Of a DNA stretch of 64,000 bases, positions 917 through 38,184 are shown piece by piece. The stretch is from a phage: NCBI GenBank assembly GCA_024790105.1, contig GCA_024790105.1_3053.1, one strand, 5' to 3'. The position numbers and the translations under genes are program-made. Each line of letters begins with the position of its first letter. The first letter of the stretch is position 1. Under the pieces are notes generated by a model that worked only from the letters and a program-made list of their open reading frames with translations, did not search any database and was not told where the DNA came from.

Positions 917-1102
917 TTATTCACCTTTAGAAATTTTATCCATAACGATAGCAATTAAACCAATTAAAAATGCTACTACAAGTGAAAACACATTTTCTGC
1001 TGTAGTTAATAATCCACATATAAATCCAACAAACATTGAAAAACTAAAAGCGGAAGCAGAAATTGCAATAGCAACATTTCGAATTAATTCACAACGTTTC
1101 AT
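917..1102 (-). CDS. small hydrophobic (probable two-helix membrane) protein
   Basis: 61-aa ORF dominated by hydrophobic stretches (FSMFVGFICGLL, FSLVVAFLIGLIAIV). Confidence 0.5.
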   Translation of the reverse strand: MKRCELIRNVAIAISASAFSFSMFVGFICGLLTTAENVFSLVVAFLIGLIAIVMDKISKGE

Positions 1103-1124
1103 TTTATTCTCCTCGGTAGTTGAT

Positions 1125-1165
1125 AGGGTAATAGTATCACAACTAAAACCCTATGTAAACAACTT
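1125..1165 (-). promoter_or_regulatory. T4-type early promoter with flanking stem-loop (PeSL-like cassette)
   Basis: minus strand GTTTAC - 18 nt - TACTAT; inverted repeat ATAGGGT/ACCCTAT brackets the -10; shares a 31-bp block with 1483-1513. Confidence 0.5.
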
Positions 1166-1172
1166 TGTGAAA

Positions 1173-1430
1173 TTATTTTAAATCTTCTAATCGTTTCTTC
1201 ATCTTAGAACCATTTTTAGCAATTTCTCCTGCATCGGAGCATAATGCTAAAAGTGCTTTAACTTTAGTTTGGTCTCCTTTAAAAGATGAAGGATCGACTG
1301 CAGCAGCAAGTTCTTTAATACGAGAGAAAAGACGCTCAGCTTCAGCTAAAGCCATTCCAAGCTTTACTTCCATGCCATGAGAAGATTCAGTAATAGTAGT
1401 TTTTGTAGCAAACTCTTTGAAAGTTTTCAT
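1173..1430 (-). CDS. internal-protein-like head protein with N-terminal capsid-targeting-like sequence
   Basis: N-terminus MKTFKEFATK...TE resembles the T4 internal-protein capsid targeting sequence (MKTYQEF...); 85 aa. Confidence 0.5.
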   Translation of the reverse strand: MKTFKEFATKTTITESSHGMEVKLGMALAEAERLFSRIKELAAAVDPSSFKGDQTKVKALLALCSDAGEIAKNGSKMKKRLEDLK

Positions 1431-1454
1431 TTTATTTTCCTAATTAATTTTGAT

Positions 1455-1495
1455 GAGGTAATAGTATCACTACCTCATCAGTATGTAAACAACTT
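1455..1495 (-). promoter_or_regulatory. T4-type early promoter with flanking stem-loop (PeSL-like cassette)
   Basis: minus strand GTTTAC - 18 nt - TACTAT; 10-bp inverted repeat TGATGAGGTA/TACCTCATCA around the -10. Confidence 0.5.
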
Positions 1496-1502
1496 TGTGA
1501 AA

Positions 1503-2199
<697 letters not shown>

Positions 2200-2200
<1 letters not shown>

Positions 2201-2913
2201 TATAGTACCTTTAGTGTATTTTTAATTTTAGAAAAAAGTTCTTCAAGAGAACCATCGTTTGTAATTACTAAATCGCCATCACGAATTGGCAATCCAGCTT
2301 CTGTAATATGTGTATCATTGGATTTTTGACCAGGACGAACTACATGAATTACTGTAGCACCCATCGCCCTAGCCGCATCCATTTCATGATCTTGACGAGT
2401 ATCAGGAACGATATAATAATCATAACCTGAGTTAAATTTATCAAGATAATCTAAAGCAAATAATTTTACCCAATACATGCGGTCGAAGTTATTAACAATC
2501 AAATCCGTACCTAGGGCTTGCATCAGACGACGGACTGACCATTGATCTTCAATATTATTTATAACGTCAGCAATCTTGTTAAATGCTACGAAATTAACTG
2601 CGTCATCAAAAACAAACACACCTTTAATTGGGCTTTTACTATTAAGATAGCAAAATGCTTGTTCCATAATCGTAATTACTTCTAATTTAGTCAGATTTAA
2701 ATTAGTTTCACGATCATAGTCAATTCCTTCAAACTCTTTACGAGTTAAACAAGGATAGTCAGTGTTTTCTGCAAATACACCCCATGCATAAGCCAATGCA
2801 TCTTTAATAGGACCAGCAAGTTGATATTTAACTGCAGAATAATTATTCATGATAAAATCTGCAGTAGTATCTTTTCCACTGCGCTTTACACCACTTAAAA
2901 AGATTAGTTTCAT
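2200..2913 (-). CDS. 1: deoxynucleoside monophosphate kinase (gp1)
   Basis: MKLIFLSGVKRSGKDTTADF P-loop start; ATG at 2911-2913 preceded by GAGGAG; ORF-track start at 2952 is probably an upstream extension. Confidence 0.9.
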
Positions 2914-33333: not shown

Positions 33334-33758
33334 TGCTTCTGATCCCTGAAACTCATGAATTAGTTCTCGAGAATGTCGAAGCACTTATTCCTGAAGCACA
33401 GGGTCGCTTTGACGAATTGTCTTCTGCTTTAAATAAAGACGATATAAATACAATTGTCGAGAATATGCTTGATGATGAAACTGATTTAGCGGTTGCATTA
33501 GCTTCTATTAATGAAAATATGCCGTTAAATGAATTCATCGTTAAACATGTTTCTGCCCGTGGTGAAATTACTCGCACTAAAGACCGCAAAACGCGTGAAC
33601 GTAATGCATTTCAAACCACTGGGTTGTCTAAAGCAAAACGTAGACAAATTGCTCGTAAAGCTACCAAAACGAAGATTGCCAATCCAGCAGGTCAATCTCG
33701 TGCTCAGCGTAAGCGTAAAAAAGCTCTTAAACGCCGTAAAGCATTAGGATTAAGCTAA
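33333..33758 (+). CDS. 68: prohead core protein gp68
   Basis: 141 aa; synteny. Confidence 0.85.
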
Positions 33759-34396
33759 TGAATGAACCCCAATTACTAATTGAAACTTGGGGTCAACCTG
33801 GCGAAATTATTGATGGCGTACCAATGCTTGAATCTCATGATGGAAAAGACTTAGGTTTAAAACCGGGTTTATACATCGAAGGAATATTCATGCAAGCGGA
33901 AGTCGTCAATAGAAATAAACGTCTTTATCCAAAACGTATATTAGAAAAAGCGGTAAAAGACTATATTAATGAGCAAGTTTTAACTAAACAAGCTCTCGGA
34001 GAATTAAATCATCCTCCACGCGCTAATGTTGACCCGATGCAAGCCGCTATCATTATAGAAGATATGTGGTGGAAAGGAAATGACGTATACGGACGAGCTC
34101 GTGTTATTGAAGGTGACCATGGTCCTGGAGATAAATTAGCAGCTAATATTCGTGCCGGATGGATTCCAGGAGTTTCTTCTCGTGGATTAGGTTCATTGAC
34201 TGACACAAATAAAGGTTATCGTATCGTAAACGAAGGATTCAAATTAACTGTAGGTGTTGATGCAGTATGGGGTCCAAGTGCTCCAGATGCATGGGTAACT
34301 CCTAAGGAAATTACCGAATCACAGACGGCGGAAGCCGATACAAGTGCCGATGACGCCTATATGGCTCTCGCAGAGGCCATGAAAAAAGCGTTATAA
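33758..34396 (+). CDS. 21: prohead protease gp21
   Basis: 212 aa; synteny. Confidence 0.9.
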   Translation: MNEPQLLIETWGQPGEIIDGVPMLESHDGKDLGLKPGLYIEGIFMQAEVVNRNKRLYPKRILEKAVKDYINEQVLTKQALGELNHPPRANVDPMQAAIIIEDMWWKGNDVYGRARVIEGDHGPGDKLAANIRAGWIPGVSSRGLGSLTDTNKGYRIVNEGFKLTVGVDAVWGPSAPDAWVTPKEITESQTAEADTSADDAYMALAEAMKKAL

Positions 34397-34426: not shown

Positions 34427-35236
34427 ATGCTTAAAGAACAACTGATTGCCGAAGCGCAGAAAATTGATGCTTCCGTTGCTCTTGATAGTATTTTCGAATC
34501 AGTTAATATTTCTCCGGAAGCAAAAGAAACTTTCGGCACTGTATTCGAAGCTACCGTCAAGCAGCACGCCGTTAAATTAGCTGAATCTCATATCGCTAAA
34601 ATTGCTGAAAAAGCAGAAGAAGAAGTAGAAAAAAATAAAGAAGAAGCCGAAGAAAAAGCTGAGAAGAAAATCGCTGAGCAAGCTTCTAAATTCATTGACC
34701 ATCTTGCAAAAGAATGGCTCGCTGAAAATAAATTAGCAGTTGATAAAGGCATCAAAGCCGAACTGTTTGAATCCATGCTTGGTGGATTAAAAGAGCTCTT
34801 TGTTGAACACAACGTTGTTGTTCCAGAAGAATCAGTTGATGTTGTAGCTGAAATGGAAGAAGAACTGCAAGAACATAAAGAAGAATCAGCTCGTCTGTTC
34901 GAAGAACTCAATAAGCGTGACGCATATATCAATTATGTGCAGCGTGAAGTGGCATTGAGCGAAAGTACTAAAGATCTGACTGAGTCTCAAAAAGAAAAAG
35001 TCTCTGCTCTGGTCGAAGGTATGGATTATTCAGATGCATTCTCAAGTAAATTGAGTGCAATCGTAGAAATGGTGAAGAAATCTAATAAAGATGAAAGCAC
35101 TATTACTGAGAGTATAAATACTCCTGATACTGAAGCAGCCGGACTGAATTTCGTCACTGAAGCTGTAGAAGATAAATCTGCACAAAGTGCAGAAGATATT
35201 GTAAGTGTATATGCGAAAGTCGCATCTCGTTTCTAA
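34427..35236 (+). CDS. 22: prohead scaffold core protein gp22
   Basis: 269 aa, E/K-rich helical scaffold. Confidence 0.9.
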   Translation: MLKEQLIAEAQKIDASVALDSIFESVNISPEAKETFGTVFEATVKQHAVKLAESHIAKIAEKAEEEVEKNKEEAEEKAEKKIAEQASKFIDHLAKEWLAENKLAVDKGIKAELFESMLGGLKELFVEHNVVVPEESVDVVAEMEEELQEHKEESARLFEELNKRDAYINYVQREVALSESTKDLTESQKEKVSALVEGMDYSDAFSSKLSAIVEMVKKSNKDESTITESINTPDTEAAGLNFVTEAVEDKSAQSAEDIVSVYAKVASRF

Positions 35237-35254: not shown

Positions 35255-36820
35255 ATGACTATCAAAACTAAAGCTGAACTTTTGAACAAATGGAAGCCAT
35301 TACTGGAAGGTGAAGGTTTACCGGAAATTGCTAATAGCAAACAAGCGATTATCGCTAAAATCTTTGAAAACCAGGAAAAAGATTTCCAGACAGCTCCGGA
35401 ATATAAAGACGAAAAAATTGCTCAGGCATTCGGTTCTTTCTTAACAGAAGCTGAAATCGGTGGTGACCACGGTTACAATGCTACTAACATCGCTGCAGGT
35501 CAGACTTCTGGCGCAGTAACTCAGATTGGCCCAGCTGTTATGGGTATGGTACGTCGTGCTATTCCTAACCTGATTGCTTTCGATATTTGTGGTGTTCAGC
35601 CGATGAACAGCCCGACCGGTCAGGTATTCGCACTGCGTGCAGTATACGGTAAAGACCCAATCGCTGCCGGTGCTAAAGAAGCATTCCACCCAATGTATGG
35701 TCCAGATGCAATGTTCTCTGGTCAGGGTGCTGCTAAGAAATTCACAGCTCTGGCTGCTAGCACACAAACCACAGTAGGTGATATCTATACTCACTTCTTC
35801 CAGGACACTGGTACTGTGTATCTGCAGGCTTCTGCTCAAGTAACAATTAGTTCTACTGCAGATGATGCAGCTAAATTAGATGCTGAAATTAAGAAACAAA
35901 TGGAAGCTGGTGCACTGGTAGAAATCGCTGAAGGTATGGCTACTTCTATCGCTGAACTTCAGGAAAGTTTCAACGGTTCCACCGATAACCCATGGAATGA
36001 AATGGGCTTCCGTATCGATAAGCAAGTTATTGAAGCTAAATCTCGCCAGCTGAAAGCTGCTTACTCTATCGAATTAGCACAGGACCTCCGCGCTGTTCAC
36101 GGTATGGATGCTGATGCTGAACTGTCTGGTATTCTGGCTACCGAAATCATGCTGGAAATCAACCGTGAAGTTGTTGATTGGATTAACTACTCAGCTCAGG
36201 TTGGTAAATCTGGTATGACCCTGACTCCGGGTTCTAAAGCTGGTGTATTTGACTTCCAGGATCCGATTGATATTCGTGGTGCTCGCTGGGCGGGTGAATC
36301 CTTTAAAGCTCTGTTGTTCCAGATTGACAAAGAAGCAGTTGAAATTGCTCGTCAGACCGGTCGTGGTGAAGGTAACTTCATTATCGCTTCCCGTAACGTA
36401 GTTAACGTTCTGGCTTCAGTTGATACCGGCATTTCTTATGCTGCACAAGGTCTGGCTACCGGCTTTAACACTGATACTACCAAGTCAGTATTTGCTGGTG
36501 TTCTGGGTGGTAAATACCGTGTATATATCGACCAGTATGCTAAACAGGATTATTTCACTGTAGGTTATAAAGGTCCGAACGAAATGGATGCTGGTATTTA
36601 CTACGCTCCATATGTAGCTCTGACTCCGCTGCGTGGTTCCGATCCGAAGAACTTCCAACCAGTAATGGGATTCAAAACTCGTTACGGTATCGGTATCAAC
36701 CCATTTGCAGAATCTGCTGCTCAGGCTCCGGCTTCTCGCATCCAGAGCGGTATGCCTTCTATTCTGAATAGCCTTGGTAAAAACGCTTACTTCCGCCGTG
36801 TATATGTTAAAGGTATCTAA
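35255..36820 (+). CDS. 23: major capsid protein gp23
   Basis: 521 aa; near-identical to recalled T4 gp23 (AEIGGDHGYNATNIAAGQTSGAV..., ends RRVYVKGI). Confidence 0.97.
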   Translation: MTIKTKAELLNKWKPLLEGEGLPEIANSKQAIIAKIFENQEKDFQTAPEYKDEKIAQAFGSFLTEAEIGGDHGYNATNIAAGQTSGAVTQIGPAVMGMVRRAIPNLIAFDICGVQPMNSPTGQVFALRAVYGKDPIAAGAKEAFHPMYGPDAMFSGQGAAKKFTALAASTQTTVGDIYTHFFQDTGTVYLQASAQVTISSTADDAAKLDAEIKKQMEAGALVEIAEGMATSIAELQESFNGSTDNPWNEMGFRIDKQVIEAKSRQLKAAYSIELAQDLRAVHGMDADAELSGILATEIMLEINREVVDWINYSAQVGKSGMTLTPGSKAGVFDFQDPIDIRGARWAGESFKALLFQIDKEAVEIARQTGRGEGNFIIASRNVVNVLASVDTGISYAAQGLATGFNTDTTKSVFAGVLGGKYRVYIDQYAKQDYFTVGYKGPNEMDAGIYYAPYVALTPLRGSDPKNFQPVMGFKTRYGIGINPFAESAAQAPASRIQSGMPSILNSLGKNAYFRRVYVKGI

Positions 36821-36835
36821 TCTTTGACGATTTAA

Positions 36836-36865
36836 GGGACCTTCGGGTCCCTTTAGTTGTTTTTA
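36836..36865 (+). terminator. rho-independent terminator after gene 23
   Basis: GGGACCTTCGGGTCCC hairpin followed by TTTAGTTGTTTTT. Confidence 0.7.
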
Positions 36866-36868
36866 TGG

Positions 36869-36876
36869 TATAAATA
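36869..36876 (+). promoter_or_regulatory. late promoter TATAAATA (gene 24)
   Basis: exact TATAAATA ~28 nt upstream of gene 24 ATG. Confidence 0.6.
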
Positions 36877-36903
36877 AATCATATAAACCAAAAGGAAAGC
36901 GCA

Positions 36904-38184
36904 ATGGCTAAAATCAACGAACTTCTGCGCGAATCAACCACAACGAACAGCAACTCAATCGGTCGCCCAAATCTCGTTGCTTTGACTCGCGCTACCACTA
37001 AATTAATATATTCTGACATTGTAGCAACGCAAAGAACTAATCAACCTGTTGCTGCTTTTTATGGTATCAAATACCTTAACCCAGACAATGAATTTACATT
37101 TAAAACTGGTGCTACTTATGCTGGCGAAGCTGGATATGTAGACCGAGAACAAATCACAGAATTAACAGAAGAGTCTAAATTAACTCTCAATAAAGGCGAT
37201 TTATTCAAATATAATAATATCGTTTATAAAGTATTAGAAGATACACCATTTGCTACCATTGAAGAAAGCGATTTAGAATTAGCTCTTCAGATTGCAATTG
37301 TTCTTTTAAAGGTTCGTCTATTTTCTGACGCAGCGTCAACGAGCAAATTTGAAAGCTCTGATAGCGAAATTGCGGATGCTAGATTCCAGATTAATAAATG
37401 GCAAACCGCAGTTAAATCTCGTAAACTTAAAACTGGCATCACAGTTGAATTGGCTCAAGATTTAGAAGCAAACGGATTCGACGCTCCTAATTTCCTGGAA
37501 GATTTGCTTGCAACCGAAATGGCGGATGAAATCAATAAAGATATTTTACAATCTTTGATTACCGTATCAAAACGCTACAAAGTTACAGGAATCACTGATA
37601 CTGGATTTATTGATTTGAGTTATGCATCTGCTCCTGAAGCAGGTCGTTCATTATACCGAATGGTATGTGAAATGGTTTCACATATCCAAAAAGAATCAAC
37701 TTATACAGCAACATTTTGTGTAGCTTCAGCTCGCGCTGCTGCGATTCTTGCTGCATCAGGTTGGTTAAAACATAAACCGGAAGACGATAAATATCTTTCA
37801 CAAAATGCTTACGGGTTCTTAGCTAATGGTTTACCGCTTTATTGCGATACTAACAGTCCATTAGATTATGTGATCGTTGGCGTAGTAGAAAATATCGGTG
37901 AAAAAGAAATTGTTGGATCAATTTTCTATGCTCCGTATACAGAAGGTCTCGACTTAGATGACCCGGAACATGTTGGTGCATTTAAAGTTGTAGTTGATCC
38001 AGAAAGCTTGCAACCGTCTATTGGTTTATTGGTTAGATATGCTTTATCTGCGAATCCTTACACAGTAGCAAAAGACGAAAAAGAAGCTAGAATAATTGAT
38101 GGCGGGGACATGGATAAAATGGCAGGACGTTCAGACTTGTCTGTTTTACTTGGTGTTAAATTGCCTAAAATTATTATAGATTAA
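36904..38184 (+). CDS. 24: capsid vertex protein gp24
   Basis: 426 aa, gp23 paralog; synteny. Confidence 0.9.
   Translation: MAKINELLRESTTTNSNSIGRPNLVALTRATTKLIYSDIVATQRTNQPVAAFYGIKYLNPDNEFTFKTGATYAGEAGYVDREQITELTEESKLTLNKGDLFKYNNIVYKVLEDTPFATIEESDLELALQIAIVLLKVRLFSDAASTSKFESSDSEIADARFQINKWQTAVKSRKLKTGITVELAQDLEANGFDAPNFLEDLLATEMADEINKDILQSLITVSKRYKVTGITDTGFIDLSYASAPEAGRSLYRMVCEMVSHIQKESTYTATFCVASARAAAILAASGWLKHKPEDDKYLSQNAYGFLANGLPLYCDTNSPLDYVIVGVVENIGEKEIVGSIFYAPYTEGLDLDDPEHVGAFKVVVDPESLQPSIGLLVRYALSANPYTVAKDEKEARIIDGGDMDKMAGRSDLSVLLGVKLPKIIID

Follow-up and report, generated by a model that had tools for sequence, protein, structure and literature searches.

The ip5 gene at the 57B/trna.4 locus of a T4-like phage: a probable packaged and gp21-processed internal head protein with a putative anti-defence role

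The 64-kb window considered here (the whole stretch of phage DNA that was analysed, 64,000 nucleotides (nt) of contig GCA_024790105.1_3053.1) is Tequatrovirus (T4-like) genome sequence, and carries on its minus strand an open reading frame (ORF) that is the already named ip5 gene of T-even phages. As a catalogued, known gene, the ORF is therefore not a discovery. Its translation in the ORF listing, MKTFKEFATKTTITESSHGMEVKLGMALAEAERLFSRIKELAAAVDPSSFKGDQTKVKALLALCSDAGEIAKNGSKMKKRLEDLK, opens with MKTFKEFATKTTITESSHGMEV and closes with RLEDLK, and an AGGA Shine-Dalgarno sequence is located at 1441..1438, 7 nt 5' of the ATG. The gene occupies the slot of T4 ipI, between 57B and trna.4, as determined by synteny with T4 and PP01. 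By analogy with the T4 internal proteins (IPs), the product of ip5 at this hypervariable locus is probably packaged in the phage head, cut by the gp21 protease, injected with the DNA and employed in blocking a host defence. The gene and the two parts of its product, the mature part being denoted Ip5*, are arranged as follows.

1173..1430, minus strand: ip5 coding sequence, internal head protein Ip5 precursor, 85 codons plus stop, ATG start, expected mass of the uncut form 9.3 kDa.
1386..1430, minus strand: leader (capsid targeting sequence), codons 1-15, MKTFKEFATKTTITE, with a predicted gp21 cut after Glu15.
1176..1385, minus strand: predicted mature Ip5* (residues 16-85), 70 amino acids, 7.5 kDa, isoelectric point (pI) 9.2, net charge +3, three-helix bundle.

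Ip5 is 100% identical to the Ip5 protein of RB15 (CAA84462.1) and 98.8% identical to T2 ip5, matches PHROG 3499 'internal head protein' (E 1.2e-49), and the same protein carries the annotation Ip5 in PP01, ime09, RB51 and VR26. It was reportedly described as a named allele by Repoila and co-workers in 1994. Ip5 is recorded in 269 sequenced phages versus 292 for IPI. At the RB15 locus the identical Ip5 is likewise encoded directly downstream of 57B, with the same flanking promoter/stem-loop cassettes, but is followed by ip9, ip7 and ip8, whereas in the window and in PP01 ip5 stands alone between 57B and trna.4. Comparison with VR26 ip5 yielded a ratio of non-synonymous to synonymous substitution rates (dN/dS) of 0.05 over the whole gene and 0.04 over its mature part, synonymous change being close to saturated, and comparison with PP01 revealed 0 non-synonymous and 5 synonymous changes; ip5 is under strong purifying selection. 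The probability that the ORF is a chance open frame from which no protein is made, in favour of which there is its small size and nothing else, is practically nil, this being refuted by the dN/dS values and by intact homologues in 497 phage records; the Shine-Dalgarno sequence, the promoter and the confident structure prediction detailed below argue against it also.

The leader of T4 IPI, MKTFKEFTSTTTPVSTITE, is followed by ATLT after the cut, and both its residues 1-7 and its terminal TITE are identical in Ip5, the Ip5 leader being four residues shorter. The predicted cleavage junction in Ip5 is I13-T14-E15/S16, where the slash marks the cut, with the continuation SSHG, i.e. an L/I-x-E motif and then a small residue. 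Previous work showed that residues 4 and 7 of the IPIII leader carry the targeting function, and that L/I-x-E is cut by gp21 on the C-terminal side of its Glu (PMC9026906); the Ip5 leader fits both rules, having the aromatic residues F4 and F7 together with I13-T14-E15. A search of the six-frame translation of the window with the pattern MKT[FY]x[ED]F returned ip5 as the only match, and 0 of 200 shuffles of the window contained it; since the motif is single in the window and absent from the shuffles, the Ip5 N-terminus is not a chance match. A preliminary description of the ORF likened this N-terminus to the ~10-residue MKTYQEF leader, a resemblance that is valid with respect to IPII and IPIII (MKTYQEFIAE), although the IPI leader is closer and the length is 15 residues rather than ~10. 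In the AlphaFold model the leader is disordered, with a block-mean predicted local distance difference test score (pLDDT) of 51 for residues 1-10 and 56 for residues 11-20.

Variation among leaders within the family coincides with the predicted junction. Ip5 of VR26 begins MKTYQTFMTE/SSHGMEVKLG..., that is, with a different, 10-residue leader joined at the predicted junction to the same mature sequence, and the leader of a Mosigvirus paralogue, MKTYSEFLSESILNE/A, ends at the same aligned column. The three family leaders differ from one another, yet all retain M-K/Q-T-F/Y..F and an x-E end. Codons 3, 4 and 6 of the ip5 leader differ from those of T4 ipI (ACT/ACA, TTC/TTT and GAG/GAA), but only synonymously, so that the peptide is unchanged, an indication that it is the peptide, rather than the DNA, that is under selection. 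As a separate observation, the 15-residue IPI-type leader is found on Ip5 when the gene is the first after 57B (the window; RB15, L006 82-1353), and the 10-residue leader when the gene is inside an ip array (ip9-ip5-ip6 of VR26, L005 1220-2032); leader type seems to track the place of the gene in the locus, not the cargo.

The prohead proteins expected to receive and process such a leader are encoded in the same genome, and gp20 and gp23 are likewise encoded in the window.

33758..34396, plus strand: gene 21, prohead serine protease expected to cut the leader; Peptidase_S77, E 1.5e-111; 211/212 residues identical to T4 gp21.
34427..35236, plus strand: gene 22, prohead scaffolding core protein, the core taking in leader-bearing proteins; T4_CASP, E 2.1e-89; 265/269 residues identical to T4 gp22.

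Given the near identity of gp21 and gp22 to their T4 counterparts, a leader that is functional in T4 should work in this phage.

The locus itself is of the ipI type. Gene order on the minus strand is trna.2, trna.3, trna.4, ip5, 57B, 57A, 1, 3, 2, 4, as in T4 and PP01, and ip5 is bracketed by two non-coding cassettes and two conserved neighbours.

1431..1502, minus strand: upstream cassette; TTTACA at 1489..1484, 17-nt spacer, TACTAT ending at 1461, 13-bp stem-loop, Shine-Dalgarno sequence.
1103..1172, minus strand: downstream cassette, before trna.4; TTTACA at 1159..1154, TACTAT ending at 1131, stem-loop, Shine-Dalgarno sequence.
1503..1958, minus strand: gene 57B, the conserved upstream neighbour defining the ipI-type locus; Pfam PF23474 Acb1, E 2.6e-60; synteny with T4 and PP01.
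917..1102, minus strand: trna.4, a 61-amino-acid predicted membrane protein and the conserved downstream neighbour; PHROG 1692; synteny with T4 and PP01.

The segments 1103-1172 and 1431-1502 each contain a promoter of the early type (TTTACA, 17 nt, TACTAT) and have in common the motif TTTCACAAAGTTGTTTACATA...GTGATACTATTACC, and RNA folding assigns the stem-loop in each a free energy of -17.4 kcal/mol, with a z-score of -3.4 for the upstream one. DNA alignment revealed that the 102 nt 5' of the ATG match the DNA upstream of T4 ipI except for one 1-nt indel, and that the 70 nt 3' of the stop codon are near-identical to T4, while similarity fades shortly past the leader codons. The cassettes are conserved in T4 although the enclosed gene differs. 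Promoter/stem-loop cassettes of this kind have been described at two hypervariable IP loci and proposed as mediators of module exchange (PMC2839356), and the downstream cassette closes the replaceable ip module on its right-hand side. A scan of the window detected no terminator-like site between 57A and trna.4.

As judged from sequence, the ORF at 1173-1430 has the attributes of a T-even internal protein gene, with leader motif, cleavage motif, the IP locus and its cassettes, and gp21 and gp22 in the same genome; the earlier proposal of an internal-protein-like gene is borne out at this level by these features, by the ipI slot and by identity with Ip5. Gene 57B encodes a full-length anti-CBASS protein of the Acb1 family, and thus an anti-defence gene directly adjoins the injected-protein locus; many records still give 57B as 'RNA ligase' or hypothetical.

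Beyond the leader, Ip5 bears no relation to the characterised internal proteins of T4. Kinship of Ip5* with IPI*, IPII* or IPIII* was considered and rejected, since BLASTP alignments cover only the leader; that with T4 IPI, for example, comprises residues 1-21, i.e. the leader plus 6 residues (E 0.001). The view of the preliminary description that the remainder is unlike IPI, IPII and IPIII is accordingly upheld. AlphaFold2 modelling (mean pLDDT 82.8) predicts helices at residues 18-44, 54-63 and 67-83, with a block-mean pLDDT of 87-95 from residue 21. Searches for relatives of Ip5* were narrow in outcome. A phmmer search of the 70 residues against 1.84 billion cluster representatives matched only Ip5 and Mosigvirus clusters, word-indexed homologue searches each returned 5 near-identical clusters and nothing else, and Pfam and NCBIfam scans of Ip5 gave sub-threshold noise only. 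Profile matches to PDB sequences were not credible (the best being to an ADAMTS fragment, E 0.009), Foldseek against the PDB gave no match with E < 6, and Foldseek against BFVD gave only the VR26 Ip5 orthologue.

T4 IPI is encoded at the same locus, with near-identical flanking non-coding DNA and the same leader type (MKTFKEF...TITE/), and IPI* (8.0 kDa, pI 9.0, net +2) is similar to Ip5* in size, pI and charge. However, the IPI* fold consists of a pair of beta sheets with helices on the N- and C-terminal sides (PMC3012670), whereas Ip5* is predicted to be all-alpha with no strands. The identified target that IPI* inhibits after injection is the GmrSD type IV restriction enzyme of Escherichia coli CT596. 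T4 IPII and IPIII, like Ip5, have an M-K-T-aromatic-x-E-F leader that is cut after x-E, and are small, basic and located inside the head; unlike Ip5, they are encoded in the second IP locus, which adjoins gene e, with a 10-residue leader, and their mature parts have no sequence similarity to Ip5*.

The one relative detected outside the T-even Ip5 proteins is the Mosigvirus 'internal head protein' (e.g. YP_009593134.1 of O157 typing phage 6; 228 records), the mature domain of which is ~48% identical to Ip5*, with 36 invariant columns that include KLGxALxEAExL and EIAKNGSxMKxRLE. Its leader has 15 residues, as in Ip5, but differs in sequence and ends L-N-E/; the gene immediately follows the lysozyme gene e, in the other IP locus, and encodes an 8-residue C-terminal extension. 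The start codon of the paralogue overlaps the end of gene e (L003 2501-2782; L004 2501-2769). The annotation of phage HX01 divides the paralogue into two short ORFs of 41 and 33 codons, suggestive of either a frameshift or a pseudogene.

A mechanism for Ip5 can be proposed by analogy with IPI, IPII and IPIII of T4. The 85-residue precursor would enter the prohead scaffolding core by means of its 15-residue N-terminal capsid targeting sequence, where gp21 would cut it after Ile13-Thr14-Glu15; in IPIII, an Asp at the cut position prevents processing and leaves targeting intact. The resultant 70-residue basic three-helix bundle, Ip5*, would remain in the head with the DNA and be injected together with it, and would act before any phage gene expression. 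There it would most probably bind and block one specific host defence protein that attacks the incoming glucosyl-hydroxymethylcytosine (hmC) DNA, the candidate target being either a type IV restriction enzyme from outside the subtypes assayed so far or some other defence that acts early. The analogy derives from IPI, which is proven to be packaged and injected (PMC3012670), and from the observation that T4 Ip1, Ip2 and Ip3 each inhibit a different specific GmrSD enzyme, IPII acting on GmrSD-ECOR21 and IPIII on GmrSD-ECOR17 (PMC12373910).

Several points, concerning the literature, transcription, internal cleavage motifs, GmrSD inhibition and sequence invariance, weigh against this interpretation and are considered in turn. 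Literature searches on Ip5, and on internal head proteins together with virion mass spectrometry, returned nothing on Ip5 itself, and neither virion proteomics nor N-terminal sequencing of Ip5 was found. With regard to transcription, the sole promoter directly upstream of ip5 is of the early type, and the closest same-strand match to the late-promoter consensus TATAAATA is ~1.1 kb upstream, at 2563..2556, inside gene 1. In the absence of a close late promoter, a late supply of Ip5 would depend on read-through or on persisting early protein. These features would also suit an unpackaged Ip5 that is made early from the upstream promoter and acts in the cytoplasm, the leader having been retained merely as part of a recombination module. 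We regard this as most improbable, since an identical upstream region precedes T4 ipI, the product of which is packaged and injected (PMC3012670), and since the leader peptide is kept in Ip5 despite the three synonymous codon differences and in all three family leaders at the conserved positions noted above. The late-promoter consensus as such is abundant in the window, with 22 copies vs 9.9 expected and no shuffle reaching 22, the copies being mostly on the plus strand, before structural genes.

The mature domain contains two internal L/I-x-E motifs, LAE/A (residues 28-31, nt ~1338-1349) and IKE/L (residues 38-41, nt ~1308-1319), both on the minus strand and both conserved in the Mosigvirus paralogue, whereas T4 IPI*, IPII* and IPIII* and also Ip6 and Ip7 have zero such motifs (combined expectation ~3.8). 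Such motifs are overrepresented in gp22, gp68 and gp21, and there is one each in Ip8 and Ip9; the characterised internal proteins may have been selected to avoid them. Ip5 could conceivably enter the core and then be cut by gp21 at LAE/A and IKE/L also, giving short peptides like those of gp22 and gp68, and with no folded effector injected. Maintenance of both motifs in a paralogue of 48% identity, their distribution among the head proteins, and the fact that gp22 is helical too would be in keeping with such a fate. Conversely, the two motifs do not significantly exceed the 0.9 expected (P 0.23), Ip8 and Ip9 also contain one each, and both sites in Ip5* are within helix 1 of a confidently predicted bundle (block-mean pLDDT 87-95 for residues 21-50), where protease access would be poor. 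Moreover, strong purifying selection across the 70 residues, including helices 2 and 3, argues for a folded functional domain. Further gp21 cleavage inside Ip5* is unlikely, and degradation to the point that no effector is delivered is considered very unlikely.

The remaining points concern function rather than packaging. When ip4-10 were supplied in trans and assayed with a panel of active GmrSD variants, no reproducible inhibition was observed (PMC12373910, Suppl. Fig. 9), although the 'ip5' of that study is equated with the present Ip5 by name, the construct sequence being unconfirmed. This result indicates that the target of Ip5 may lie outside the tested set. In addition, Ip5 is almost invariant over ~250 Tequatrovirus records, without the diversification expected of a simple arms-race effector. 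Both observations would be accommodated if Ip5 were packaged and processed but had no specific host target, serving instead as a generic basic DNA-associated head protein in charge neutralisation, DNA organisation or ejection, and hence interchangeable with other internal proteins. The basic character of Ip5* (13 Lys plus Arg in 70 residues, in addition to its high pI and net positive charge) is in agreement with such a role, as are the contacts between T4 internal-protein lysines and DNA phosphates (PMC3012670). However, a net charge of +3 is modest, all three T4 internal proteins turn out to be specific inhibitors on the right hosts (PMC12373910), and the many unrelated folds and presence/absence polymorphism at one locus fit an accessory anti-host role better. 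A purely generic function is for these reasons judged unlikely, and a packaged, processed and injected inhibitor of host defence is retained as the probable role of Ip5.

A more specific proposal, which is offered tentatively, is that Ip5 is an injected inhibitor of a defence beyond the tested GmrSD subtypes, and possibly not of type IV restriction at all. It would then be one of a small family of all-alpha effectors which, through the exchange of leaders, has travelled between the two IP loci and among Tequatrovirus, Gaprivervirus and Mosigvirus. If this is true, then the near invariance of Ip5, and a distribution as wide as that of IPI, would imply that the target is a defence both common and conserved in E. 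coli, Shigella and Yersinia. Until 2025 a target was known for IPI alone, and Ip2 and Ip3 were then found to block other GmrSD enzymes. T2 carries Ip5, as do many phages that are candidates for therapy against E. coli, Shigella and Yersinia, so the target of Ip5 would explain part of the host range of these phages and could reveal a defence system directed at glucosylated hmC DNA on its entry.

Finally, with respect to the head gene cluster of the window, genes 23 (35255-36820) and 24 (36904-38184) are almost contiguous, and the segD homing endonuclease gene, which in T4 is located between the two, is absent at 36820-36904.
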